A DNA stretch of 64,000 nucleotides. Source: Verrucomicrobiia bacterium (lineage in GTDB: Bacteria; Verrucomicrobiota; Verrucomicrobiia; Palsa-1439). Both the position numbers and the translations under genes were made by a program. Location of the stretch: assembly GCA_049510215.1 (NCBI GenBank), contig JBEKZD010000003.1:24544-88543 (forward strand), read 5' to 3'. The notes beneath the pieces were generated by a model. That model made no database searches and was not told the origin of the DNA. It was given only the letters and a program-made list of their open reading frames with translations. This document shows, piece by piece, positions 5,168 to 59,801 of this stretch (position 1 is its first letter; the number at the start of each line of letters is the position of its first letter).

Positions 5168-6148
5168 TCAGCCTTCGACATCGCCGACGATTTCCTCGAC
5201 GATGTCTTCGATGGTGACAATGCCGAGATGTTGCCCCTCGGGGTTGATGACGACACTGATGGGATTATGGCTGGCGCGCAGCACAGGCAGGACACGATCG
5301 ATCCGGTCCGTCGAACGCACAAACTGCGCATTCTGCATCAGTTCATGCGCGGTCTTGCCATCGCGCGCGACGTTTTCAAAGAGAATCTCGTACACGTTCA
5401 CAACGCCTGAAATCTTGTCGCCCTCGCGCACGGGAAGCCGCGCGTAGCCCGTGCGCTGCGAGATCTCGAACAACTCCCGGATCGGCGTATCTCGCGCGAC
5501 GGTCACAGTCCGTGACAGTGGGACCATGATCTCGTGAACCGTTTTGTACGGGAAATCGAAAACCCCGTCGATCATCTGGCGTTCATCGGTCGTGAGCGCG
5601 CCGCCCGCCTCCCCCTCCTTGGCGAGTTGCTTGAGTTCCTCGCGCGTCACAAAAAAGCTTCTTGGCTGTTCCGCCCTCCTCCCCACCCGAGCGATCGCTC
5701 GCATCAGCACGCCGAACAGCCCTGCCAACGGCGCAAACAACCACGCCGTCGCGTTCAGGACATCGGCGCACGTCATGCACAAGCGATGCGTGTAATGGCG
5801 AAACAGCGTCTTCGGTGTGATCTCGCTGAGGATAAGGAGCACCGAAGAAGCGACAACGGTCGCGGCAAGCCCGATCAGCGCGTTTGCGCCGAACAGATGC
5901 GTCGCCAGCACCGAGGCCGAAACCGCCACGGCCACGTTGGCCAGATTCGTGCCGATCAGCGTCGTGCCCAGGAGCCGCTCGGTGTTCTCGACGAATGTGC
6001 TGAGGATCATCGCGCGACGGTTCCTGCGTTCGACTTCGTGACGAAGACGCACACGATTCAATGAAATCAAACCCGTCTCGATGCCGGAGAAGAACGCTGA
6101 CGCCAGGACACCGACAAGAATTGCGAGCCAATACCAGTAGAGCGCCAT
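5168..6148 (-). CDS. CNNM/CorC-family protein (DUF21 transmembrane domain plus CBS pair)
   Basis: N-terminal DUF21 membrane region (LASAFFSGIETGLISLN) followed by CBS-like segments. Start trimmed to MALYWYW, 1 nt downstream of the preceding stop. Confidence 0.7.
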   Translation of the reverse strand: MALYWYWLAILVGVLASAFFSGIETGLISLNRVRLRHEVERRNRRAMILSTFVENTERLLGTTLIGTNLANVAVAVSASVLATHLFGANALIGLAATVVASSVLLILSEITPKTLFRHYTHRLCMTCADVLNATAWLFAPLAGLFGVLMRAIARVGRRAEQPRSFFVTREELKQLAKEGEAGGALTTDERQMIDGVFDFPYKTVHEIMVPLSRTVTVARDTPIRELFEISQRTGYARLPVREGDKISGVVNVYEILFENVARDGKTAHELMQNAQFVRSTDRIDRVLPVLRASHNPISVVINPEGQHLGIVTIEDIVEEIVGDVEG

Positions 6149-6149
6149 C

Positions 6150-7427
6150 TCAGTTGTCCTCGACCACGAAAGTTTCGGGGTCAATCTGCAACACCACTTC
6201 TCGAACGCGGTTCTTGACCACTTTGCGCGCGGTCACGCGCACGTTGTCGACCTTCACTTGCTCGCCGTCCTTCGGCAGCGAACCGAGTTGGGCGATCAGC
6301 CAGCCCGCGATCGTTTCCACATCGGCGGCCCGCAGTGAAAGGCCGCACTGTTCGTTTACCAATTCCAGCCGCGCCTTGCCGTTGATGAGATAGCGCTGCT
6401 TGTCCAGCTTCTGCACCATGATTTCGCTGGCGTCGAATTCATCCTCGATCTCGCCGATGATCTCCTCCAGAATGTCTTCCAGCGTCACCATGCCATGCGT
6501 GCCGCCGTACTCATCAACGACAATCGCGACGGGATGTTCTTGCTTGCGGAAATTCTTCAGCAACTTCGCCACGCTCATCGTGTCGGGCACGAAATTCGGC
6601 AGTTCGACCACTTCATCGAGTTCGCGCTCGGGATGGATTAGGAACTCCTTTACGTTCAGGATGCCTTCGACGGTGTCGGGCGAATCATGGATGATCGGGA
6701 CACGGCGGTGTTTGATCTTGCGCAAGGCAGCCGCCATTTCTTCTCGACTCAGGGCGTCCTCGACACATTGCATGTCCACGCGAGGGGTCATGATCTCCTT
6801 GACCTGCATGTTTTCCAGGGCGAGGATCTTGTTGACCATATCGCGCTCTTCTTTGCGCACTACGCCCGCGCGTTCGCTGACTTTTAGCAATGTGCGGTAC
6901 TCGTCTTCCGTTGGTGCACTGGTGCGTGCCTGGCGCGCGGAGAAATACGGGAGGCGCTCGATCCATCGCACCAGAAGTTCTGACGCAGCCTCGGCCACGC
7001 GACGGAGGCGCGACGTCGAGGCAACCATCCAATGTGTGATCTGCGCCAAATGCACGGCGCAAAACTCAGGGCTGCGGATGACCAGTGTTTTGGGGGTCAC
7101 TTCCCCAAACAGCAGAATCAGAAGGGTCATCACGGGGACTGCCAGCTCTTCGGCTTGGAGCGGCCAGACGGCTGCGATGATGTTGAAGCCGACGACAGCC
7201 GCCGCGACGTTGGCGACGGTGTTGCCGAGCAAAATGGTGGAGAGCAGGCGATGCGGCTGATCAAGCAGTTCACTGATCTGCTGTCCCTGCCGCGGATGCT
7301 CCTGACGCAGTCGCCGCACCTGCAGCTTGCTCAAGGAGAAAAGGGCAATCTCGGTTCCGGAGAAGAATGCCGAGAGCGCCAGCAATCCTCCCAGAACCAG
7401 CAATTCGAAAATCGCGGTTGTCAGCAT
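6150..7427 (-). CDS. HlyC/CorC-family transporter (DUF21-CBS-CorC_HlyC)
   Basis: LALSAFFSGTEIALFSL (DUF21), a CBS pair, and a C-terminal CorC/HlyC transporter-associated domain (ETIAGWLIAQLGSLPKDGEQV). Tandem paralog of the gene at 5168-6148. Confidence 0.8.
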   Translation of the reverse strand: MLTTAIFELLVLGGLLALSAFFSGTEIALFSLSKLQVRRLRQEHPRQGQQISELLDQPHRLLSTILLGNTVANVAAAVVGFNIIAAVWPLQAEELAVPVMTLLILLFGEVTPKTLVIRSPEFCAVHLAQITHWMVASTSRLRRVAEAASELLVRWIERLPYFSARQARTSAPTEDEYRTLLKVSERAGVVRKEERDMVNKILALENMQVKEIMTPRVDMQCVEDALSREEMAAALRKIKHRRVPIIHDSPDTVEGILNVKEFLIHPERELDEVVELPNFVPDTMSVAKLLKNFRKQEHPVAIVVDEYGGTHGMVTLEDILEEIIGEIEDEFDASEIMVQKLDKQRYLINGKARLELVNEQCGLSLRAADVETIAGWLIAQLGSLPKDGEQVKVDNVRVTARKVVKNRVREVVLQIDPETFVVEDN

Positions 7428-7535
7428 GCGCTGGTTAAGAAGTCTATGAAACTTCCCACGTCAGCGTCAATCGCCCGGCGGCGGGCCCGGCGGTCGCGTC
7501 CTACCACGGCGCATCAAATGAGATGTGACAGAGCA

Positions 7536-8678
7536 CTACGGCTTCGGTGCCGTCACTGCGGGCTTTCCCGCCGTAGGCGGTGCCTGCGAAGGAATTGCAC
7601 TCGGCTTGGAATCGCCGGGCACAGCTTCGATGGGCTTCAGGAAGACCTCGACCTTCGTCTTGTCGCGCAGGCCCTTGATGTGTTGTTGGGCGACTTCAGT
7701 GCTCTTGGTGGAACGCAGGAATTTTTCGATGTCGCCTTTGACTTCATCGAGCGTTGCTTCCCGCTCGGGTTTGCGATCGGTGACCATCAACAGGTGATAA
7801 CCATATTGCGTGGTCACAACATCGCTCAATTCGTTTGTCCGAAGGGAAAAGGCTACGGCTTCGAACTGCGGCACCATCTGGCCGCGCGTGAAAAAGCCGA
7901 GATCGCCGCTGTTGCTGGCACTGCCCGGGTCTTCCGACACCTTTCGAGCTATGTCCGCGAATTTTTCTCCGCCTTTGATCAACGAACGGGCTGCTTCGAT
8001 CTGCGCCAGCTTTGCCGCCTTGGTCTCTTCAGATGCGTCGGGCGACATGCGGATGAGGATGTGGCTGGCCCGGACTGCTTCGGGTTGCTTCATTTTCTCG
8101 CGATTGCTATCGTAGTATGCCTTGATTTCCTCTGGCGTGACCTTGATTTCGCGGTCGAACACGCTTCGCATCGTCTCTTGAATGATCACGTTTTCGCGCG
8201 TGCGCTTGGCGTATTCGTCGGGCGTCACACCAGCCTCCTGCAACGCTTTCGTCAGACCTTCCTCGCCGCCGAGTTGCGATTTAACTCTGTCGAGTTGCTG
8301 CTGAACCTTCACGTCAACGTCAGGGGGGACATGGGCAAGCCCTTCCTGCAATATCAACTCGTGGTTGATCATGTCGTCGATGATCTGATGTTCGAGCACC
8401 GGAATCTGTTGCTGCGGAAACGAACGTCCGCCTTGCGCAAGCCGGGTTTCCACGGTTTGCACGGCCAAATCCAATTCCTTGCGCTTGACTTCGTGGCTGC
8501 CGATGCGCGCGACGACTTCATCGAGATTGTGTGCAGGTGCCGGCGTCACCGCCGGCGCTGCCGCCTGCTGGGTTGCTTTCGGAGCGGGTTCGGCGGAACC
8601 AACGGTCTTGTCTTCACCAACCACTGGCTTTGCGGCGAGGGCGACGGCAAAAACGATGAGGGCACATGTGATTTTCAT
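7536..8678 (-). CDS. periplasmic peptidyl-prolyl cis-trans isomerase, SurA/PrsA (parvulin) type
   Basis: Signal peptide, SurA-like N-terminal domain, and parvulin rotamase core (ASHILIRM...GDLGFFTRGQMVPQFEAVAFSL...). Confidence 0.75.
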   Translation of the reverse strand: MKITCALIVFAVALAAKPVVGEDKTVGSAEPAPKATQQAAAPAVTPAPAHNLDEVVARIGSHEVKRKELDLAVQTVETRLAQGGRSFPQQQIPVLEHQIIDDMINHELILQEGLAHVPPDVDVKVQQQLDRVKSQLGGEEGLTKALQEAGVTPDEYAKRTRENVIIQETMRSVFDREIKVTPEEIKAYYDSNREKMKQPEAVRASHILIRMSPDASEETKAAKLAQIEAARSLIKGGEKFADIARKVSEDPGSASNSGDLGFFTRGQMVPQFEAVAFSLRTNELSDVVTTQYGYHLLMVTDRKPEREATLDEVKGDIEKFLRSTKSTEVAQQHIKGLRDKTKVEVFLKPIEAVPGDSKPSAIPSQAPPTAGKPAVTAPKP

Positions 8679-52877: not shown

Positions 52878-53078
52878 CGCAAATCCAATCACAGTCAATC
52901 ATAAAATACCGGACGCTAACCGCTGATTACGCCGAATCCGCGCAATCCGTGAAATCCGCGGTTTAACTCATTCTTCGGCCGCCGGTATTAACCACTGATT
53001 ACGCCGATGACGCTGATCGGCCGAATCCGTGCGATCTGCGAAATCCGTGGTTTAATCCATCTCCTGACTGCCGGGCCT
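52878..53078. repeat. ~95-bp repeat family, two tandem copies (left flank of the R-M/GHKL island)
   Basis: Unit approximately ...CTGATTACGCCGA(A/T)..CGCTGAT.GGCCGAATCCG.GC.ATC.G.GAAATCCG.GGTT.AA.TCATT.CT..GCCGCCGGTATTAACC. Further copies at 57555-57690, 58405-58575 and 58940-59030. Confidence 0.75.
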
Positions 53079-53414
53079 GCCCGCGCGAGGGGTGGATTCC
53101 TTTTCTTCGTGCTTGAAAGTCATCGCCCTGAAGCACAGACTCGCGGTGATGGCGGCAATGTTTCAGGAAATCAAACAGTCCCTCCATCGGCTGTACGGCG
53201 AAGATGCTCACCCGTGGATGATGAGGTTGAGCAGCAGGAGCACTGGCACCGTCGTCGAACGCGACAAAGCCAGCGAAGGTTTGCTCGCTGCCGGCGACGA
53301 ACGCATGGAAGACATGATCGCCTTCCGCGACCCCGCCAACGGCTTGAAGCCGTCCGGCACCAGTGAATCAGATGACGCTTGGTATTTCGTACAAGCGATC
53401 TGAAAGGACGTAGC

Positions 53415-54047
53415 ATGGCAATCAAAGATGAAATTCGGACGATGGCCAACCGGTACGCTGCGGAGCTCAAAACCAGCATTGATGCGCGCGTTGTCGAGAT
53501 GGAGCAGGATGACCGCTCCCACGTCCTTATTTACCGAGTGCTTGGGATTAGTGAACCGGAAGGCAAGCTCATTGACGTTTATCAGAACAAGGGACGGTTC
53601 GTTTACAAGTATGCTGGCTCATTCCTTGAAGAGGCTGCAAAGCTTTGCTTCAAGAAGAACTTCCCGCAGTCGGGATCGCTACGCGTCCCAAACACCCACG
53701 GGCAACGACCGAAAACATTTGAGATTGATTGCTTGGTTGGCACTGACGCTTTGGAAATCAAGTGGAGGGATGCAACGACAGACGGCGATCATATCACGAA
53801 AGAGCACACTCGGATAAAGGCGATATGCGACGCTGGGTACAAGCCAATCCGAGTGATGTTCTATTATCCGAATCGTGACCAAGCGATCCGGATTCAGCAA
53901 GCGTTGGAGAGTATATACAAGGGCGTGCATGGAGAGTATTATTACTCAGACACTGCATGGGATTATGTGAAACGGCGAACAGAAATTGACCTGCTCGGAA
54001 TCCTTAAGCAACTTGCTGGGGAAAGGAGCGCACAACGTGAGCAGTGA
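53415..54047 (+). CDS. putative type II restriction endonuclease (PD-(D/E)xK-like)
   Basis: FEIDCLVGTDALEIKWRD fits a D...ExK catalytic motif. About 210 aa. The 3' end overlaps the methyltransferase start by 11 nt. Low GC. Family not identified. Confidence 0.4.
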   Translation: MAIKDEIRTMANRYAAELKTSIDARVVEMEQDDRSHVLIYRVLGISEPEGKLIDVYQNKGRFVYKYAGSFLEEAAKLCFKKNFPQSGSLRVPNTHGQRPKTFEIDCLVGTDALEIKWRDATTDGDHITKEHTRIKAICDAGYKPIRVMFYYPNRDQAIRIQQALESIYKGVHGEYYYSDTAWDYVKRRTEIDLLGILKQLAGERSAQREQ

Positions 54048-55245
54048 GGTCCGGCAAGGTGACTGCCTGGAGGTTCTGCAGAGACTGGATTCTCAGTCGG
54101 CTGATCTCATTTATGTTGACCCGCCTTTTTTCACCCAGAAGACGCACGCTCTGGTCACTCGTGACCGTACCGCGACTTTTCAGTTTAGCGACGAATGGAA
54201 TTCCCGCGACGAATATTTGAACTTCCTTCGTGATCGTTTGGTTGAGTTCAACCGTGTGCTCAAGCGCACCGGCTCGATTTTCTTTCATTGTGACACGAAC
54301 GCATCCCACCACATCCGCTGCCTGCTTGATCGTGTATTTGGAGAAAGTATGTTCCGCTCCGAAATCATCTGGCACTATCGTCGTTGGTCAAACTCCCAGC
54401 GCTGTCCGCTGCCGTCGCATCAGACCATCTACTTCTACAGCAAGTCGGACGACTACAAGTACAATCAGGTTTTCGAAAAATACTCGCCCTCGACAAATGT
54501 TGACCAGATTTTGCAGCGCCGTCGACGCGATGAACATGGCAAATCCGCTTACGCACGCGACGAGAACGGCAATATCATCTATGATGGGCACAAGAAGGGC
54601 GTGCCAATGTCTGACGTGTGGGACATCCCCTTCCTGAATCCCAAGGCAAGGGAGCGAGTCGGTTATCCGACTCAGAAGCCAATTCTGCTACTCGAACGCA
54701 TCATCTCTCCGGTCACGAACAAGGGTGATTTCGTGCTCGACCCCTTTTGCGGCAGCGGCACAACGCTTGTCGCTGCCGAACTTCTTGGACGGAATTCACT
54801 TGGCATCGACATCGCCGCCGAAGCTGTGAAACTTGCTGCGGAGCGATTGAAGCAGCCGATAAAGACATCGTCTGAGTTGCTGCGAAAAGGCCGCGATGCC
54901 TATGTTGAGTCCGACGAAGAGGCATTAGCCTATTTGCACGGTTTACAAATAGTAGCGGTTCAACGGAATCGCGGGATTGACGCGATCATTAAGACACCTC
55001 CAGGCGAGAATCCTGTTCTTATCCGAGTTCAGCGGCAGGGCGAGCTACTCCTCGATGCGGCAGAGCAACTCCACCGCGCCGGGCTGAGTAAACAGCCAGC
55101 CACACTTATACTTATCGCCACGGATGAGACGCAGTCAGCAGGGCTCTTTGACCTGCTGCCCACAGGAGTCACGGTTGTGAACTCGACGCGCAAGGAAGTC
55201 ATGGAACTACTGAACACTAAGGTGTTCAGCAACTTGTTCAGATGA
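54037..55245 (+). CDS. DNA methyltransferase, beta-class N6-adenine/N4-cytosine (N6_N4_Mtase), with a ~130-aa C-terminal extension
   Basis: Motif IV LIYVDPPF precedes motif I DPFCGSGTT (beta-class order). GTG start with AAAGGAG 7 nt upstream (the ORF is open from 53986). The C-terminal extension (GIDAIIK...LIRVQRQGE) is not part of the MTase core. Confidence 0.8.
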   Translation: MSSEVRQGDCLEVLQRLDSQSADLIYVDPPFFTQKTHALVTRDRTATFQFSDEWNSRDEYLNFLRDRLVEFNRVLKRTGSIFFHCDTNASHHIRCLLDRVFGESMFRSEIIWHYRRWSNSQRCPLPSHQTIYFYSKSDDYKYNQVFEKYSPSTNVDQILQRRRRDEHGKSAYARDENGNIIYDGHKKGVPMSDVWDIPFLNPKARERVGYPTQKPILLLERIISPVTNKGDFVLDPFCGSGTTLVAAELLGRNSLGIDIAAEAVKLAAERLKQPIKTSSELLRKGRDAYVESDEEALAYLHGLQIVAVQRNRGIDAIIKTPPGENPVLIRVQRQGELLLDAAEQLHRAGLSKQPATLILIATDETQSAGLFDLLPTGVTVVNSTRKEVMELLNTKVFSNLFR

Positions 55246-55264
55246 CCCATCGCAGCATCATGCC

Positions 55265-57211
55265 ATGACAGAACTGAAACAAAGTCTCTTTGCTGAACTG
55301 CCTTTCATCTTCGGATCGGATTTCCTTCGCGACCATGCGGGGCATCTTATCTCAGAGCCGCGCATAGCCATCGTTGAGTTGATTGCCAATGCGTACGATG
55401 CCGGGGCAACCGAAGTGAAAATAGCGTGGCCTGACGAGGCAGGCGGTCACTTCGAGGTCGCTGACAACGGGACGGGGATGACAGCCGAGGAATTTCACCG
55501 CCGGTGGAGGACTCTGTGCTACAACCGCATGCACGAGCAAGGTCAAATTGTCCAGTTTCCTCCCGGAGTAAAACAGAAGAAGCGAATCGCATTCGGCACG
55601 AGCGGGAAAGGGCGGCACAGCGCATTTTGTTTTGCTGACTCTTATGAGGTCGAGACGTGGAAGGATGGAAGGTCAATCACTGCGCTCGTAAGAATGACAG
55701 AAGGCGGTAACGAGCCCTTCCACTGCGCGGTGCAAGGGGAAACCGACAAGAAGGGTCACGGAACAAGGCTCTCGGCGGAGGTTGCTCGACGGTTGATACC
55801 GGTCGAGCAGATACGGGAATGGGTCGGCTCGAAGTTCGCCGTCGATCCGTCCTTTGCAGTTGTTATCAATAGGCAGCGTCTACAACTACTCGATCTGAAG
55901 GCTCTCACGAGCAGTGAGATTGATGTCGAGTCGTATGGAAAGGTCGTGATTCACCAGATTGATGCCGCTGCCCAAGACCGGTCCACACGATTGCGGGGCA
56001 TTACATGGTGGGTCAACAAGCGAATGGTCGGACAGCCATCTTGGGACGGACTCGATGAGAGAGGCGCGATTCTGGATGGTCGAACGGCTGCGGCTAAGAG
56101 ATACAGCTTCGTTATCGAGGCGGACTTTCTGAAACCAGACCTGAAGGACGACTGGACTGGTTTTCGCGATACTCAACGGTCGAATGTGGTGCGGGAATCT
56201 GTGCGCACCCATGTGATCAGGTTGTTGAACGATCTGCTTGCTGGTACTCGCAAGGAAAGAAAGAAGGCTGCCTTGGCAGAGAACAGGAAGGCACTGGGCG
56301 AGCTTTCACGGCTTTCGCGGAAGGTCCTCGGGCATTTTGTAGATGAGATTCAAGAAAAGTGTCCAACGCTCTCCCAAGGAGATCTGGCCCGAACCGTAGA
56401 GGTGTTCACAAAGATGGAGCAGGCCCGAAGTGGCTATGACCTCCTATACCGGTTGGCAGCGTGTTCGCCCGATGATCTGGACACTTGGAATAGGCTGATG
56501 CAAGAATGGACCGCGAGCAATGCCGAGGTCGTTCTTAGAGAACTCGGCAGACGGCTTGAGCTAATCAAGCAGCTTCAGTCGCTCGTGCATACCGCGACGA
56601 CAGATGAACTGCACGACTTGCAGCCGCTATTCGCACGCGGGCTTTGGATATTTGGGCCAGAATACGAGGCGGTCGATTTCGCTTCCAATCGTGGCATGGC
56701 GTCGGTCATTCGTGAACTGCTTGGTGGGACGGAAACTGAGGTGGCTCGCCTCCGCCCCGATCTTGTGGCTTTACCAGACAGGTCTATCGGTGTGTATGCA
56801 GCCGATTCGTACGATGAAAGCGGTGAGGTGGCTGGCATCAGAAAGGTTTTGATCGTCGAACTCAAGAAGGGCGGCTTCACAATCACGCGTGAAGAGCTTC
56901 GACAAGGTGAAGACTATGCGCTCGAAGTCCGAAAAGCGAACTTGGTTCGTGCTGACACTGAGATAATCGTATATGTCTTAGGCGATTCATTAGGTGACGA
57001 TGCTCAAGAAAGAACTGTCGGAAAGGCGACGAAGCTCATACCGATGATGTACGACACAGTTCTCAAGAAAGCACACGCTAGGACGTTTAACCTCCAGAAG
57101 AAACTCGAAGCAAACCAGCTTCGGATTGAAACAGATGTAGAAGTCGAAGAAGTCCTTGCCCAACCGGAACAGCAGGAGCTTCCCGAACAGGCTAACTCAA
57201 TTCTTGGTTAA
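55265..57211 (+). CDS. MORC/MutL-like GHKL ATPase with a C-terminal PD...ExK nuclease-like motif
   Basis: Bergerat-fold motifs ELIANAYDAGATEVKI (N box) and VADNGTGMTAEEF (G1 box). C-terminal RPDLVALPDRS...KVLIVELKKGG resembles a PD-(D/E)xK site. Starts 20 nt after the MTase stop. Confidence 0.55.
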   Translation: MTELKQSLFAELPFIFGSDFLRDHAGHLISEPRIAIVELIANAYDAGATEVKIAWPDEAGGHFEVADNGTGMTAEEFHRRWRTLCYNRMHEQGQIVQFPPGVKQKKRIAFGTSGKGRHSAFCFADSYEVETWKDGRSITALVRMTEGGNEPFHCAVQGETDKKGHGTRLSAEVARRLIPVEQIREWVGSKFAVDPSFAVVINRQRLQLLDLKALTSSEIDVESYGKVVIHQIDAAAQDRSTRLRGITWWVNKRMVGQPSWDGLDERGAILDGRTAAAKRYSFVIEADFLKPDLKDDWTGFRDTQRSNVVRESVRTHVIRLLNDLLAGTRKERKKAALAENRKALGELSRLSRKVLGHFVDEIQEKCPTLSQGDLARTVEVFTKMEQARSGYDLLYRLAACSPDDLDTWNRLMQEWTASNAEVVLRELGRRLELIKQLQSLVHTATTDELHDLQPLFARGLWIFGPEYEAVDFASNRGMASVIRELLGGTETEVARLRPDLVALPDRSIGVYAADSYDESGEVAGIRKVLIVELKKGGFTITREELRQGEDYALEVRKANLVRADTEIIVYVLGDSLGDDAQERTVGKATKLIPMMYDTVLKKAHARTFNLQKKLEANQLRIETDVEVEEVLAQPEQQELPEQANSILG

Positions 57212-57280
57212 GTATGTGTCGAAGGATGCGTTTGTGGTCACGGCGTACCTGACCGATCAACCAAAAGCCGGAGAGGATTT

Positions 57281-57538
57281 ATGGCCGACAAAGTAAAAAT
57301 CTGGTTCGATGCGGAAGCGGATTACCTGGAGGTCCGGTTTGCCGGGGCCGCCGGCTATATGAAGGAAACCCAGCACGATGCCGTCATGGAGCGCGTGGAC
57401 GCCCAAGGCCGTGTGATTGGGTTCAGCGTTTTGGGCGTGAGCCGTTTCAAGAAGAACAAGCCATTGGAAGCCGAGCTAGTCTCCACTTTTCCCCCGGCAG
57501 TTGTGCGCGAGAAGCCTGGCAAGAAGTACGGGAAGTAA
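57281..57538 (+). CDS. DUF2283-family small protein
   Basis: MADKVKIWFDAEADYLEVRF matches the DUF2283 N-terminal pattern (x-Y/W-D-xEAD-x-LYI/LEV). Confidence 0.5.
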   Translation: MADKVKIWFDAEADYLEVRFAGAAGYMKETQHDAVMERVDAQGRVIGFSVLGVSRFKKNKPLEAELVSTFPPAVVREKPGKKYGK

Positions 57539-57554
57539 GGTTTCTCTTTTCGCC

Positions 57555-57690
57555 TATCCGCTCAATCAGCGAAATCCGTGGTTCAACTCATTTCCTAACC
57601 GCCGGTATATTAACCGCGGATCACGCCGATGACGCTGATTGGCCGAATCCGCACAATCTGTGAAATCCGTGGTTCAATTCAGAGAAGGGG
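57555..57690. repeat. ~95-bp repeat family, about 1.5 copies (right flank of the island)
   Basis: gcgaaatccgtggttcaactcatttcctaaccgccggtatattaaccgcggatcacgccgatgacgctgattggccgaatccgcacaatctgtgaaatccgtggttcaa. Confidence 0.75.
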
Positions 57691-57704
57691 GTCAAAAACG
57701 TCGC

Positions 57705-58400
57705 TCACTTCGGGCTGAACCGCCGGACGATGATCTCGGGCAGATCAATATTATCCGGCTGTTTGAGGAGGAAAACGACCATCGCGGCCACGTCGGCAGG
57801 ACGGATCATCTGCTGGCCTTTCAAGCGGTCGCCGAGGTAGGTGCCCTTGATGAAATCGGTGTCCACCCCGCCGGGACAGAGATTATAGACGTGGATGTTG
57901 TGCGGCTTGGCTTCGATTGCCAGGCTGCGCGCGAACCCGAGCAGGCCGTGTTTGCTTGCGCAATAGGCGGATTGATGCAGATATCCCTGCACGCTGGAGG
58001 TGCTGGCGAGGTTGATGATGCGTCCTTGTTTGCGGGCGATCATGTGCGGCAGCACCTCGCGGCAAATCAGGAACGGCGCAGTGAGATTGACGCGCATCAC
58101 TCGCTCCCAGTCAGGCAGCGAAATCGCCGGAACCTGTTTTTCGAGGAAGATACCGGCGTTGTTGACGAGAATGTCACAAGTGCCCAAGTGTTTCATCGCT
58201 TGAGTAACGGCGCCGGGGATCTGCTTCAAGTCGGCCAGATCGCATTTGATGAACTTGGCGCGGACCGTCGCTCGGGATTTGGTGCGCGATAACAGCGCGA
58301 GCCGCACGCCTTCCCGTGCCAACGCCTGTGCGATGGCCAGCCCGATCCCACGGCTTGCGCCGGTGACGATGGCAGTCTTGCCTTTTATTGATAACGACAT
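57705..58400 (-). CDS. SDR-family oxidoreductase
   Basis: TGASRGIG Rossmann motif. NNAG. Catalytic Y-x3-K (YCASK). Confidence 0.85.
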   Translation of the reverse strand: MSLSIKGKTAIVTGASRGIGLAIAQALAREGVRLALLSRTKSRATVRAKFIKCDLADLKQIPGAVTQAMKHLGTCDILVNNAGIFLEKQVPAISLPDWERVMRVNLTAPFLICREVLPHMIARKQGRIINLASTSSVQGYLHQSAYCASKHGLLGFARSLAIEAKPHNIHVYNLCPGGVDTDFIKGTYLGDRLKGQQMIRPADVAAMVVFLLKQPDNIDLPEIIVRRFSPK

Positions 58401-58404
58401 TTCT

Positions 58405-58575
58405 TTGACCGCGGATTACGCTGATGACGCTGATTGCGCCGAATCGGCGCCCTCATTGGTTATCCGTGCTATCTGCGTTATCCGTGGTTCGTTCCCTCTG
58501 CGTTCATTTCTTTAACTGCGGATAACGCTGATTGCGCCGAATCGGCGCAGTCAGTGGTCTGCGCTCCTAATCACG
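58405..58575. repeat. ~95-bp repeat family, two degenerate copies
   Basis: gcggattacgctgatgacgctgattgcgccgaatcggcgc ... gcggataacgctgattgcgccgaatcggcgc. Confidence 0.65.
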
Positions 58576-58937
58576 CGTTTCCACTCCAATTTGGCGCTCT
58601 TAAAGTTGAGCAGCAACGCCAGTTCAAGACCTGTGATGGCCAGATAACCGGTCATTTGCGCAATGTGCGCATCAATGAAAGCCGTGACGACCTTGGTATC
58701 CACGATCACAGCATTGTCCACGATTAAGTCGGGTACCATGGTGCCCACAAGTTTCCCGTCATAGTGAACAGGGAATTGACTCTGTTGCTCGACTCTGTGG
58801 CCACGTTTCTGAAGCTCAATGACCAAGGCGTTTTCGTAGAGTTTCTCGTCAAGACCGGGTTTCAGGATGTTCAGCACCTGCATTGCCGCGCCAATGATCT
58901 CACGACTGAGTTCCTCATGGATTAACTTTTGGTTCAT
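58551..58937 (-). CDS. GxxExxY-family protein (PD-(D/E)xK-like fold)
   Basis: LSREIIGAAMQVLNILKPGLDEKLYENALVIEL...PDLIVDNAVIVDTKV matches the GxxExxY family pattern. Start trimmed to MNQKLIHEEL. Confidence 0.6.
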   Translation of the reverse strand: MNQKLIHEELSREIIGAAMQVLNILKPGLDEKLYENALVIELQKRGHRVEQQSQFPVHYDGKLVGTMVPDLIVDNAVIVDTKVVTAFIDAHIAQMTGYLAITGLELALLLNFKSAKLEWKRVIRSADH

Positions 58938-58939
58938 CG

Positions 58940-59030
58940 CATCGCGCGGATAACGATTCGTTATCCGCGCCATCCGCGTGATCCGCGGTTCATTTCTCCG
59001 TCAATTCATTTCCTGGCCGCCGGTGACGCT
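58940..59030. repeat. ~95-bp repeat family, partial copy
   Basis: cgcggataacgattcgttatccgcgccatccgcgtgatccgcggttcatttctccgtcaattcatttcctggccgccggtga. Overlaps the 3' end of the SDR gene at 59001-59801. Confidence 0.6.
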
Positions 59031-59801
59031 GAGGGCGATGCCGGTGATGTACGAAGCCGCGTCGCTGGCGAGGAAGACGAGGGTGTTGCAGACGTCGTCG
59101 TAGGTACAACCGCGTTTCATGGGCACCTGGTTGACGTATGCCTGACGAACATCCTCGACGGACTTGGCACCCGGCACTTTGCCGGCGCGGAGATACTGGA
59201 CGAACAAACCTTTGTCGGGATCGGTCCAGAGCGGAGAGTCGAGCAGGTTGCCGGGACAGATGGCGTTGCAGCGGATGCCGTGAGGCGCCATTTCGAGCGC
59301 GACGCTTTGCACGAGGCCGATCCCGCCGAACTTCGTGGCGGCGTATGCGGAGTTGGCGGCGCTGCCTTTCTTGCCGGACTTGGAGTTGATCTGGATGATC
59401 GCGCCGCTGCGCTGCGGTTTCATGACGCGGCAGGCGTGCTTCATCGTGAGAAAATTGCCAAACAAGTTGACGTTCATCACCGCCCGCCACTTTTCGGCAT
59501 CCGCTTCGGCGATGGGTTCGGCGATGAGGATGGCGGCATTGGAGACGACAATGTCCACGCGCTTGAACGTCTCGACGGCCTTGTCGAACAGCGCCTTGAC
59601 CTGCGGCTCCTGTGTGACATCCACCTTGAAGGCGAAACTGCGGCCACCGATCTCCTTAGCGGTTTGTCTCGCCCCGTCCTCGTTCATGTCGGCGACCACA
59701 ACCTCACAACCTTCCTGCACGAGCCGTTGGCAGATGGCCTGGCCGAGTCCCTGCGCCCCGCCGGTGACGACGGCGATTTTGTTTTCGAGTGTTCTGTTCA
59801 T
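59001..59801 (-). CDS. SDR-family oxidoreductase (sorbitol-6-phosphate/polyol dehydrogenase-like)
   Basis: VTGGAQGLG...NAAI...YAATK with catalytic Tyr/Lys. 266 aa. Confidence 0.85.
   Translation of the reverse strand: MNRTLENKIAVVTGGAQGLGQAICQRLVQEGCEVVVADMNEDGARQTAKEIGGRSFAFKVDVTQEPQVKALFDKAVETFKRVDIVVSNAAILIAEPIAEADAEKWRAVMNVNLFGNFLTMKHACRVMKPQRSGAIIQINSKSGKKGSAANSAYAATKFGGIGLVQSVALEMAPHGIRCNAICPGNLLDSPLWTDPDKGLFVQYLRAGKVPGAKSVEDVRQAYVNQVPMKRGCTYDDVCNTLVFLASDAASYITGIALSVTGGQEMN

Follow-up and report, generated by a model that had tools for sequence, protein, structure and literature searches.

The block of four genes between positions 53415 and 57538 of the window (the whole 64,000-nucleotide stretch of DNA that was analysed) is most probably a composite defence island, in which an ApaLI-type restriction–modification (R-M) pair lies beside an independent single-gene GHKL nuclease. 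Both appear to be independent, horizontally mobile modules, which would have landed in a resident small gene pair of this Verrucomicrobiia genome. An earlier note on the same DNA had correctly placed the four co-directional open reading frames, and had proposed that the first three encode one integrated system.

The ApaLI-type restriction–modification pair

The first two genes form a canonical ApaLI-family type II R-M pair. The gene at 53415–54047 (plus strand) encodes a type IIP restriction endonuclease of 210 aa, described in the earlier note as a PD-(D/E)xK-like protein with an EID...ALEIKW motif. The motif is indeed present, its catalytic D105, E114 and K116 show no variation across 17 homologs, and the product matches Pfam RE_ApaLI (PF09499) at full length (2–189 of 189; E 4e-94; 314 bits, cutoff 25), as well as PADLOC REase_II (PDLC03586; E 2.7e-102). 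NCBI lists the identical protein under the name ‘ApaLI family restriction endonuclease [Verrucomicrobiia bacterium]’. The cognate beta-class amino-methyltransferase (402 aa, with DPPF and FCGSGTT motifs) is encoded on the plus strand at 54037–55245, and its gene overlaps that of the endonuclease by 11 nt, as had been reported. Its catalytic domain (residues 23–268; 54103–54840) matches Pfam N6_N4_Mtase, and the protein matches PADLOC MTase_II PDLC03339 (5–392 of 399; E 4.5e-166).

About 110 further residues lie past the catalytic domain (~residues 290–402; 54904–55242). The earlier note was right about this extension, which it took for an ‘extra’ domain, possibly Mrr-like. We found no similarity of this C-terminal domain in Pfam, in PDB or to Mrr_cat; indeed, its alignment by hhalign to Mrr_cat as found in a related methyltransferase (L053) had a probability of 0.15%. 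The full-length match to PDLC03339, and tblastn matches in other ApaLI loci that extend to residues 383–402, indicate instead that the domain is a fixed trait of its methyltransferase family.

A full-length homolog of the methyltransferase was found by tblastn directly 3′ of the ApaLI endonuclease gene in all 60 informative loci (those with enough room downstream, out of 80 surveyed). The window pair has the same order as R.ApaLI/M.ApaLI, endonuclease and then overlapping methyltransferase; both of its proteins match the family profiles at full length, with D...ExK conserved in the endonuclease and DPPF and FxGxG in the methyltransferase, and no structural difference from that type IIP system was found, the recognition site and methylated base of the window pair being predictions. 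From its membership of the ApaLI family, the pair is predicted to recognize GTGCAC or a site near it. With 16 GTGCAC sites observed in the window against ~18–20 expected, there is no signal of avoidance. The modification is probably N6-adenine methylation; the nearest solved structures to the methyltransferase are CcrM, M.RsrI and M.MboIIA, all of them N6-adenine enzymes, and the literature yielded nothing usable on which base M.ApaLI methylates. The endonuclease would cut unmethylated, GTGCAC-like sites, and the translationally coupled methyltransferase would shield the host DNA.

The GHKL nuclease and its relation to Shedu

The third gene (55265–57211, plus strand) encodes a stand-alone protein of 648 aa that joins a GHKL ATPase to a C-terminal PD-(D/E)xK nuclease, the composition that the earlier note had read from a PD...ExK motif. 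A GHKL domain (~55352–55834) is followed by an Hsp90/MORC-like middle domain (~55847–56164), a helical region (~56174–56674) and the nuclease (~56690–57109), all encoded on the plus strand. All 48 family members scanned match HATPase_c_3. Residues E38, N42, D45, D67, G69, G71, G114-K115-G116 and T167 in the ATPase part, and E466, D499, E532 and K534 in the nuclease part, are invariant in the family. Foldseek with the full-length model retrieved Hsp90/TRAP1 (N+M), the MORC3/4 ATPase and GyrB 43K at E values of 1e-11 to 1e-13, in alignments spanning 370–480 columns, which bears out the S5/transducer domain suspected earlier. The C-terminal domain had no match in a Pfam scan at E ≤ 10 or in a profile search against PDB sequences. 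MutL/MORC proper was considered as a placement and rejected, as NCBIfam MutL models cover residues 25–78 only (32 bits; cutoff 180) and PDB matches to MutL/PMS2 are N-terminal only.

At E ≤ 1e-30 the family comprises 467 clusters (50% identity) in Bacteria and Archaea, and is found in Verrucomicrobia, Planctomycetes, Acidobacteria, Cyanobacteria, Bacteroidetes and methanogens. We tested its homology to Shedu through plasmid proteins positive for SduA_C. The family profile aligned to a Sinorhizobium meliloti plasmid protein, which combines HATPase_c_3 with Pfam SduA_C above threshold, at 99.5% probability over 536 columns (hhalign; E 1.3e-22), and the alignment takes in the RPD, ExK and Q motifs of the nuclease. 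The SduA_C score of this protein is 27.9 bits, and that of an A. pusense plasmid protein 28.2 bits (cutoff 27); BLASTP to a Caballeronia homolog gave an E value of 2e-30. Because the profile homology to these SduA_C-carrying proteins is full length, profile comparison places the 648-aa protein as a divergent relative of type I-D GHKL-Shedu/paraMORC3. Unlike GHKL-Shedu, the window family carries inserted segments between its RPD and ExK motifs, and its nuclease falls below the existing models: Pfam SduA_C (PF14082, DUF4263) matched 0 of 48 members at E ≤ 0.1, and the PADLOC SduA models did not match the window protein.

VcSduA of Vibrio cholerae, a type I-D GHKL-Shedu, was validated experimentally in 2025 as a single-gene anti-phage nuclease, and its protection requires both the ATPase glutamate and the nuclease lysine (PMC12137116). 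The statement in the earlier note that GHKL ATPases of this kind have no characterised mechanism is, therefore, outdated. The window protein can be likened to VcSduA by architecture and residue positions. Both have ~600–650 aa and the same order of GHKL, Hsp90/MORC-like middle and C-terminal PD-(D/E)xK domains, and the catalytic glutamate (E38 here, E27 in VcSduA) and lysine (K534 here, K557 in VcSduA) occupy comparable positions. As in the GHKL-Shedu class of Gu et al. (10.1101/2023.08.10.552793), a single gene is present without a conserved partner. Anti-phage activity is an experimental result for VcSduA and a prediction for the window subfamily. By analogy, the window nuclease most likely acts alone, as an ATP-dependent dimeric clamp in which the GHKL and middle domains would gate the C-terminal nuclease, so that invading phage DNA may be cut.

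The protein also fits the description of paraMORC3 (Iyer, Abhiman & Aravind 2008; PMC2292703): intact GHKL ATP-binding motifs are followed by an S5/transducer-like middle domain and by a C-terminal RE-fold nuclease domain with E-D-ExK. Like the window family, the paraMORC3 genes have a patchy, laterally mobile distribution, and many of them stand alone without a conserved neighbourhood. However, their role was proposed within R-M operons with SF-II helicases; the window locus has no helicase, and the R-M pair adjoining the GHKL gene is an unrelated autonomous unit.

Insertion site, repeats and base composition

The fourth gene (57281–57538, plus strand) is a DUF2283 (YuzE-like) gene, as previously named, its product scoring 26.6 bits against Pfam DUF2283 (cutoff 23). 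Of its 2383 homologs, the named ones among the best matches are mostly from Verrucomicrobia, and the gene is absent from all other GHKL (78) and ApaLI (80) loci surveyed. In the related genome L173, and in L174 and L176, an intact 103-aa gene precedes and overlaps the DUF2283 gene. No such intact partner is present in the window, where tblastn detects residues 74–103 of it only (90% identity); the first 73 codons are absent, a 3′ remnant of the last 30 codons and the stop lies at 57204–57296 (plus strand), and DNA homology to L173 starts at 57205. The DUF2283 gene belongs to neither the R-M nor the GHKL unit; with the 30-codon fragment it is what survives of a resident two-gene module, broken by an insertion that deleted the first 73 codons of the partner. 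On the right, the acquired DNA ends at ~57205, within the truncated resident gene, and not at the right-hand repeat.

Direct repeats do flank the block (~136 nt, 52926–53059 and 57547–57681, ~80% identity), but they are not confined to its two ends. The repeat has a 28-nt core, ATCCGYGNNATCNGYGNNATCCGYGGTT, of which the window holds 10 copies, all inside 52936–58990. Three core copies (plus, minus, plus; at 52936, 52990 and 53025) make up a left cluster at 52909–53077, three in the same arrangement (at 57556, 57612 and 57647) a right cluster at 57556–57699, and further copies at 58407, 58462, 58514 and 58963 lie within 58398–59041. The repeat also brackets the next two genes, an SDR gene (57705–58400) and a low-GC PDDEXK_3 gene (58551–58973, minus strand), and the same repeat family is found in L173. 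The repeats on either side of the block belong to a dispersed, REP-like family, and the copies around the PDDEXK_3 gene show that it marks no boundary peculiar to the island.

The difference in base composition is smaller than the 50% against 62% GC noted earlier: we measured 53.4% in the island and 59.2% elsewhere in the window. The contrast is clearer in GC3, which is 0.57–0.61 in the island and 0.74–0.83 in the flanking genes. A small ORF on the plus strand between the left repeats and the endonuclease gene (53152–53403; 84 aa, or up to 103 aa from a GTG at 53092) is annotated as a gene in metagenomic records. It has no Pfam match, and tblastn found it in none of the 78 GHKL and 80 ApaLI loci, so that it is conserved neither with the R-M pair nor with the GHKL gene; the DNA at 53025–53195, which overlaps it, resembles intergenic DNA of L173. 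A search for an empty site through the identical DeoR neighbour found none, as each of the 24 contigs read carries the island.

Gene neighbourhoods and alternative readings

The GHKL gene occurs in 0 of 80 ApaLI-type loci, and the ApaLI endonuclease in 0 of 78 loci of GHKL homologs from other species. DNA similarity to R-M relatives is limited to 53419–55208 and that to GHKL relatives to 55294–57181, and no locus matched both blocks. The endonuclease, methyltransferase and GHKL genes are thus not co-conserved, and the three-part system fails the test that the earlier note had itself set for it, a survey of conserved neighbourhoods across genomes. Around GHKL homologs no neighbour family takes up more than 6 of the 53 upstream positions, and none more than 4 of the 58 downstream; per-protein checks agree. 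The immediate neighbours are mixed and include recA, LeuRS, pyruvate carboxylase, various methyltransferases, HsdR, SNF2 helicases, DarT, AIPR and AbiEii-like genes.

These counts largely refute one integrated, ATP-dependent, non-canonical restriction system, which we consider highly improbable, even though the packing in the window is tight (the 11-nt overlap and a 19-nt spacer), the three genes are similarly low in GC3, and paraMORC genes had been predicted within R-M operons (PMC2292703). In the 60 informative loci the two R-M genes make up a complete, autonomous unit, the methyltransferase C-terminal domain is a family feature and not an adaptor gained here, and VcSduA acts alone (PMC12137116). 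It is true that close GHKL relatives directly follow other R-M genes in two loci, an Eco57I-type methyltransferase with a PstI/BsuBI-type endonuclease in L085 and a different beta-methyltransferase in L001. However, these R-M genes come from unrelated families, which speaks against a specific protein–protein interface. Some coupling is nevertheless likely at the level of expression: the GHKL gene starts (55265) 19 nt after the methyltransferase stop (55245), where a 20-nt overlap had been reported, on the same strand and with no recognisable terminator in between, so that the two genes are likely co-transcribed, and the modules may yet cooperate in function. A promoter/terminator scan gave counts at chance level.

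A looser relationship, in which an autonomous GHKL nuclease is preferentially captured 3′ of diverse R-M operons and gains from that position, is unlikely in our view, but draws on the same loci. In the window, L001 and L085, which hold three of the five nearest members of the family, the GHKL gene lies 19–42 nt 3′ of R-M genes of three different families, and upstream of GHKL homologs methyltransferase and R-M families turn up most often (raw counts among 53: Eco57I 6, N6_Mtase 3, ResIII 3, N6_N4_Mtase 2). By family counts, R-M components account for no more than about a quarter of the genes upstream in the wider family. The nuclease might, for instance, act on ends or nicks that the endonuclease leaves in the DNA, or form a co-expressed second line of defence. 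However, most GHKL loci lack an adjoining R-M gene, those of the close relatives P0002, P0004 and P0059 among them, several neighbours are housekeeping genes, and enrichment of R-M genes beside any defence gene is the normal pattern of defence islands. Also unlikely is the bolder proposal that the GHKL nuclease is a recurrently recruited, second-stage ‘R-M booster’ 3′ of unrelated type II operons. The partner types under that proposal are ApaLI-type (window), PstI/BsuBI-type (L085) and other beta-methyltransferases (L001, L006 and L053). As a separate point of the same reading, the 467-cluster family would form a large branch of Shedu unseen by current Pfam and PADLOC models.

It is also very unlikely that the GHKL protein is a restriction endonuclease in its own right, either an HgiDII/BbrUII-like type II enzyme using a neighbouring methyltransferase or a modification-dependent type IV enzyme. 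Its N-terminal 180 residues do match both NCBIfam ‘BbrUII/HgiDII family restriction enzyme’ (NF050001) and PADLOC REase_II PDLC03419; in HgiDII/BbrUII enzymes the N-terminal GHKL domain is related and the overall length comparable. The NF050001 score, however, is 80 bits against a cutoff of 550 and covers the GHKL domain only. Enzymes of that kind are paired with a cognate m5C methyltransferase (for example a Pantoea plasmid relative, L168, directly 3′ of a Dcm methyltransferase), whereas the window family has no conserved methyltransferase neighbour, which a type II enzyme would need. No SRA, EVE, PUA or similar modified-base reader domain was detected in the protein, and the proteins to which it is homologous over its full length carry SduA_C and are not of the HgiDII type. 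We therefore reject HgiDII/BbrUII membership.

With the composite island as the preferred reading, the main value of the analysis is negative: an apparently exotic three-component machine would be two known, independent defence modules side by side. The recurrence of close GHKL relatives just 3′ of unrelated R-M operons raises the question of synergy between Shedu-type nucleases and restriction; if the booster proposal were true, the coupled nuclease would process ends or nicks made by endonucleases while bound to no single R-M family. The family to which the window protein belongs is homologous at full length to type I-D GHKL-Shedu, yet is missed by Pfam SduA_C and PADLOC SduA, and censuses of defence systems probably undercount the GHKL-Shedu-like class.

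Composition and boundaries of the island

All four co-directional ORFs described in the earlier note are present on the plus strand, and its observation was mostly confirmed. The REase gene (53415-54047, 210 aa) matches Pfam RE_ApaLI end to end (E 4e-94) and PADLOC REase_II. It is followed by a beta-class N6_N4 MTase gene (54037-55245, 402 aa), a gene for a GHKL protein with an N-terminal HATPase_c_3 domain (55265-57211, 648 aa) and a gene encoding a DUF2283 protein (57281-57538). The REase and MTase genes overlap by 11 nt, as described; the overlap described between the MTase and GHKL genes is in fact a 19-nt gap. The R-M pair and the GHKL gene probably share a transcript. The contrast in base composition holds, though with other figures: the island has 53.4% GC against 59.2% for the rest of the window, and its GC3 is 0.57-0.61 against 0.74-0.83 for flanking genes. 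The R-M and GHKL modules have similar GC3. The source is a Verrucomicrobiia MAG, and the same gene arrangement was found in every contig of this organism read.

In L173, L174 and L176, loci from other genomes, the gene for a DUF2283 protein 87-91% identical to that of the window is preceded by one for a 103-aa protein, with a 16-nt overlap between the two. In the window, a 3′ remnant of this partner gene lies at 57204-57296 (30 codons, 74-103 at 57204-57293, 90% identity), and its first 73 codons are absent from the whole window. DNA homology to L173 begins at 57205, where the GHKL ORF ends. An acquired block has thus taken the place of the 5′ portion of a resident gene. The block is about 3.8 kb long, comprises the R-M and GHKL genes (~53410-57205) and has its right junction at ~57205, marked by the remnant; the DUF2283 gene is a bystander.

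A small ORF of 84-103 aa (53092-53403) lies just upstream of the REase gene. It has no Pfam match and no homolog in other ApaLI or GHKL loci, and hence is no conserved C (controller) protein. In L173, DNA similar to the overlapping stretch 53025-53195 is intergenic, so the ORF may be spurious.

The direct repeats said to bracket the island are real (~136 nt, ~80% identity), but they do not mark a boundary specific to it. The 64-kb window contains 10 copies of a 28-nt core, itself built from three ATCCGYGNN units; every copy lies within 52936-58990, the copies are confined to four intergenic regions, and they alternate in orientation (+ - + or - + -). The repeats bracket three successive units, namely the R-M/GHKL/DUF2283 block, an SDR gene and a PDDEXK_3 gene, and the same family is found in the related genome L173 (3351-3426). 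Since the core also brackets the next two genes and occurs in L173, it is not an island-specific boundary, and it looks like a dispersed REP-like (REP/BIME-like) element or an insertion hot-spot. The PDDEXK_3 gene ('GxxExxY'-type; 58551-58973, minus strand) has a low GC of 0.51, the same repeats on both flanks and an SDR paralog-like gene on each side; it could be a further inserted cassette.

The ApaLI-type restriction-modification pair

An identical REase is annotated at NCBI as 'ApaLI family restriction endonuclease [Verrucomicrobiia bacterium]'. Among the best 120 of 5357 homologs, identity to it is 75-100% and the named ones span several phyla. With the catalytic residues D105, E114 and K116 invariant as well, the REase family is very conserved by these comparisons. 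The MTase aligns with positions 5-392 of the 399 in the PADLOC type II model PDLC03339 (E 4.5e-166).

We fetched 80 metagenome loci encoding ApaLI-type REases. In every locus with 1.3 kb or more of downstream sequence (60 in all), a homolog of the MTase directly follows the REase (51-78% identity), with matches reaching residues 383-402. The C-terminal 'extra' domain noted earlier in the MTase is therefore present but, rather than being peculiar to this system, is constant across the family. No Pfam or PDB entry matches it; it carries an invariant signature (QRNxGIDA...RVQR..E) and shows no similarity to an Mrr_cat domain, contrary to the suggestion of an Mrr-like fold. The nearest solved MTases are the N6-adenine enzymes CcrM, M.RsrI and M.MboIIA which, together with the DPPF motif, favours m6A as the predicted product. 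GTGCAC, the predicted target of the pair, is not avoided in the window (16 sites versus ~18-20 expected). Some other 6-bp palindromes are near-absent from the window (CCTAGG 0, CAGCTG 1, GCTAGC 1), and palindromes of the same composition reach 36 (TGCGCA).

Neighbourhoods of the R-M and GHKL genes

The earlier note proposed a three-part, ATP-dependent restriction or phage-defence system, to be abandoned if its genes were not co-conserved. No GHKL homolog was found in the 80 ApaLI-type loci, including 30 with at least 3.3 kb downstream. Reciprocally, neither an ApaLI REase nor a DUF2283 gene was present in 78 loci from different bacterial and archaeal species encoding GHKL homologs (35-66% identity), and only ~10 of these have any beta-class MTase within 8 kb. 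Pfam scans of immediate neighbours revealed no conserved partner of the GHKL homologs: the commonest upstream families were Eco57I (6/53), TaqI_C (5), N6_Mtase (3) and ResIII (3), and every downstream family was found in at most 4 of 58. The neighbours at single loci are varied: they include recA, leucyl-tRNA synthetase and pyruvate carboxylase, but also HsdR, HsdM, SNF2 helicases and AbiEii-like ATPases, with DarT, AIPR and SLATT proteins also seen downstream. DNA similarity to R-M relatives is limited to 53419-55208 and that to GHKL relatives to 55294-57181, and no locus matches both segments at the DNA level. The genes thus lack co-conservation, and a novel three-part restriction system is not supported by the comparative data.

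Among the five closest GHKL relatives, two start 30-45 nt after R-M genes that belong to other families: one (locus L085) follows an Eco57I-type MTase and a PstI/BsuBI-type REase, the other (L001) a different beta-MTase, 29% identical to that of the window. The close relatives P0002, P0004 and P0059 have no adjacent R-M gene. This adjacency fits ordinary clustering in defence islands; we see a modest chance of functional synergy between the R-M pair and the GHKL nuclease.

A large helicase of ~920-1070 aa follows the GHKL homolog in L013 (10010-12772; EcoEI-R-like) and in L018 (10026-13247), L020 (3856-7062) and L049 (10013-13195; all three SNF2/ResIII), with a 4-nt gene overlap in three of the four (L013, L020 and L049). 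Most of the loci with such a helicase come from Planctomycetota MAGs. Homolog and helicase may together form a two-gene system specific to a subclade, comparable to the operons of MORC and SF-II helicase genes described by Iyer et al. In L053, the gene just before the GHKL homolog encodes a beta-class MTase that carries an Mrr_cat / inactive-REase domain fused at its C-terminus (5805-7424); in L037, that position is taken by a second, different HATPase_c protein (6022-7848). Two GHKL homologs from unrelated MAGs, one of Verrucomicrobiota and one of Acidobacteriaceae, have recA immediately upstream in the same orientation (L010, 6856-7941, and L023, 6773-7891).

Placement of the GHKL protein

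The GHKL family has 467 representatives (50% identity) at E<=1e-30, nearly all of 630-690 aa. All 48 aligned members keep the GHKL motifs (E38, N42, D45, D67xGxG71, G114-K-G116 and T167) and the nuclease signature E466 / D499 / E532-x-K534, in agreement with the C-terminal nuclease motif first read from the sequence. An AlphaFold2 model (mean pLDDT 77.9) matched in Foldseek the N-terminal and middle domains of Hsp90/TRAP1, the ATPase cassettes of MORC3/4 and GyrB 43K (E 1e-11 to 1e-13, ~370-480 aligned columns). The protein thus carries a GHKL domain followed by a transducer-like middle domain.

GHKL + S5 + a C-terminal RE-fold nuclease is the definition of paraMORC3, many members of which are stand-alone (Iyer et al. 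2008, PMC2292703). VcSduA of Vibrio cholerae (VC_00276 in the numbering of that study) protects against phage as a single gene, for which its ATPase glutamate is required as well as its nuclease lysine; it combines GHKL with DUF4263 and is assigned to type I-D Shedu (Adams et al. 2025, PMC12137116). None of the 48 members of the window family reached Pfam SduA_C, and the PADLOC SduA models did not match the window protein, so it does not qualify as Shedu by the signature domain. More distant full-length relatives were found on plasmids by tblastn; a Caballeronia homolog scores E 2e-30 in BLASTP. Among these relatives, proteins of Sinorhizobium meliloti and Agrobacterium pusense combine HATPase_c_3 with SduA_C (27.9 and 28.2 bits, just passing the cutoff of 27). 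The family profile aligns with the S. meliloti protein over 536 columns (99.5% probability, E 1.3e-22), taking in the nuclease motifs RPD, ExK and Q, although the window family has two insertions between RPD and ExK. By this transitive full-length homology, we assign the 648-aa protein to the GHKL-Shedu / paraMORC3 lineage, as one of its divergent branches.

MutL and MORC models matched only the N-terminal GHKL part, far below cutoffs, as did that of HgiDII/BbrUII-type restriction enzymes; these assignments were rejected. On a Pantoea agglomerans plasmid (pPagL15_1, locus L168, 1926-4944), a gene for a Dcm-type MTase overlaps the 5′ end of one for a 661-aa GHKL protein with a match to PADLOC REase_II PDLC03419 (E 3e-49), with phage-like genes around; this pair looks like an HgiDII/BbrUII-type R-M system.

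Judged by its sequence relationships, the locus consists of a type II R-M system of known kind and, beside it, a new and divergent member of an already described class of single-gene defence systems.
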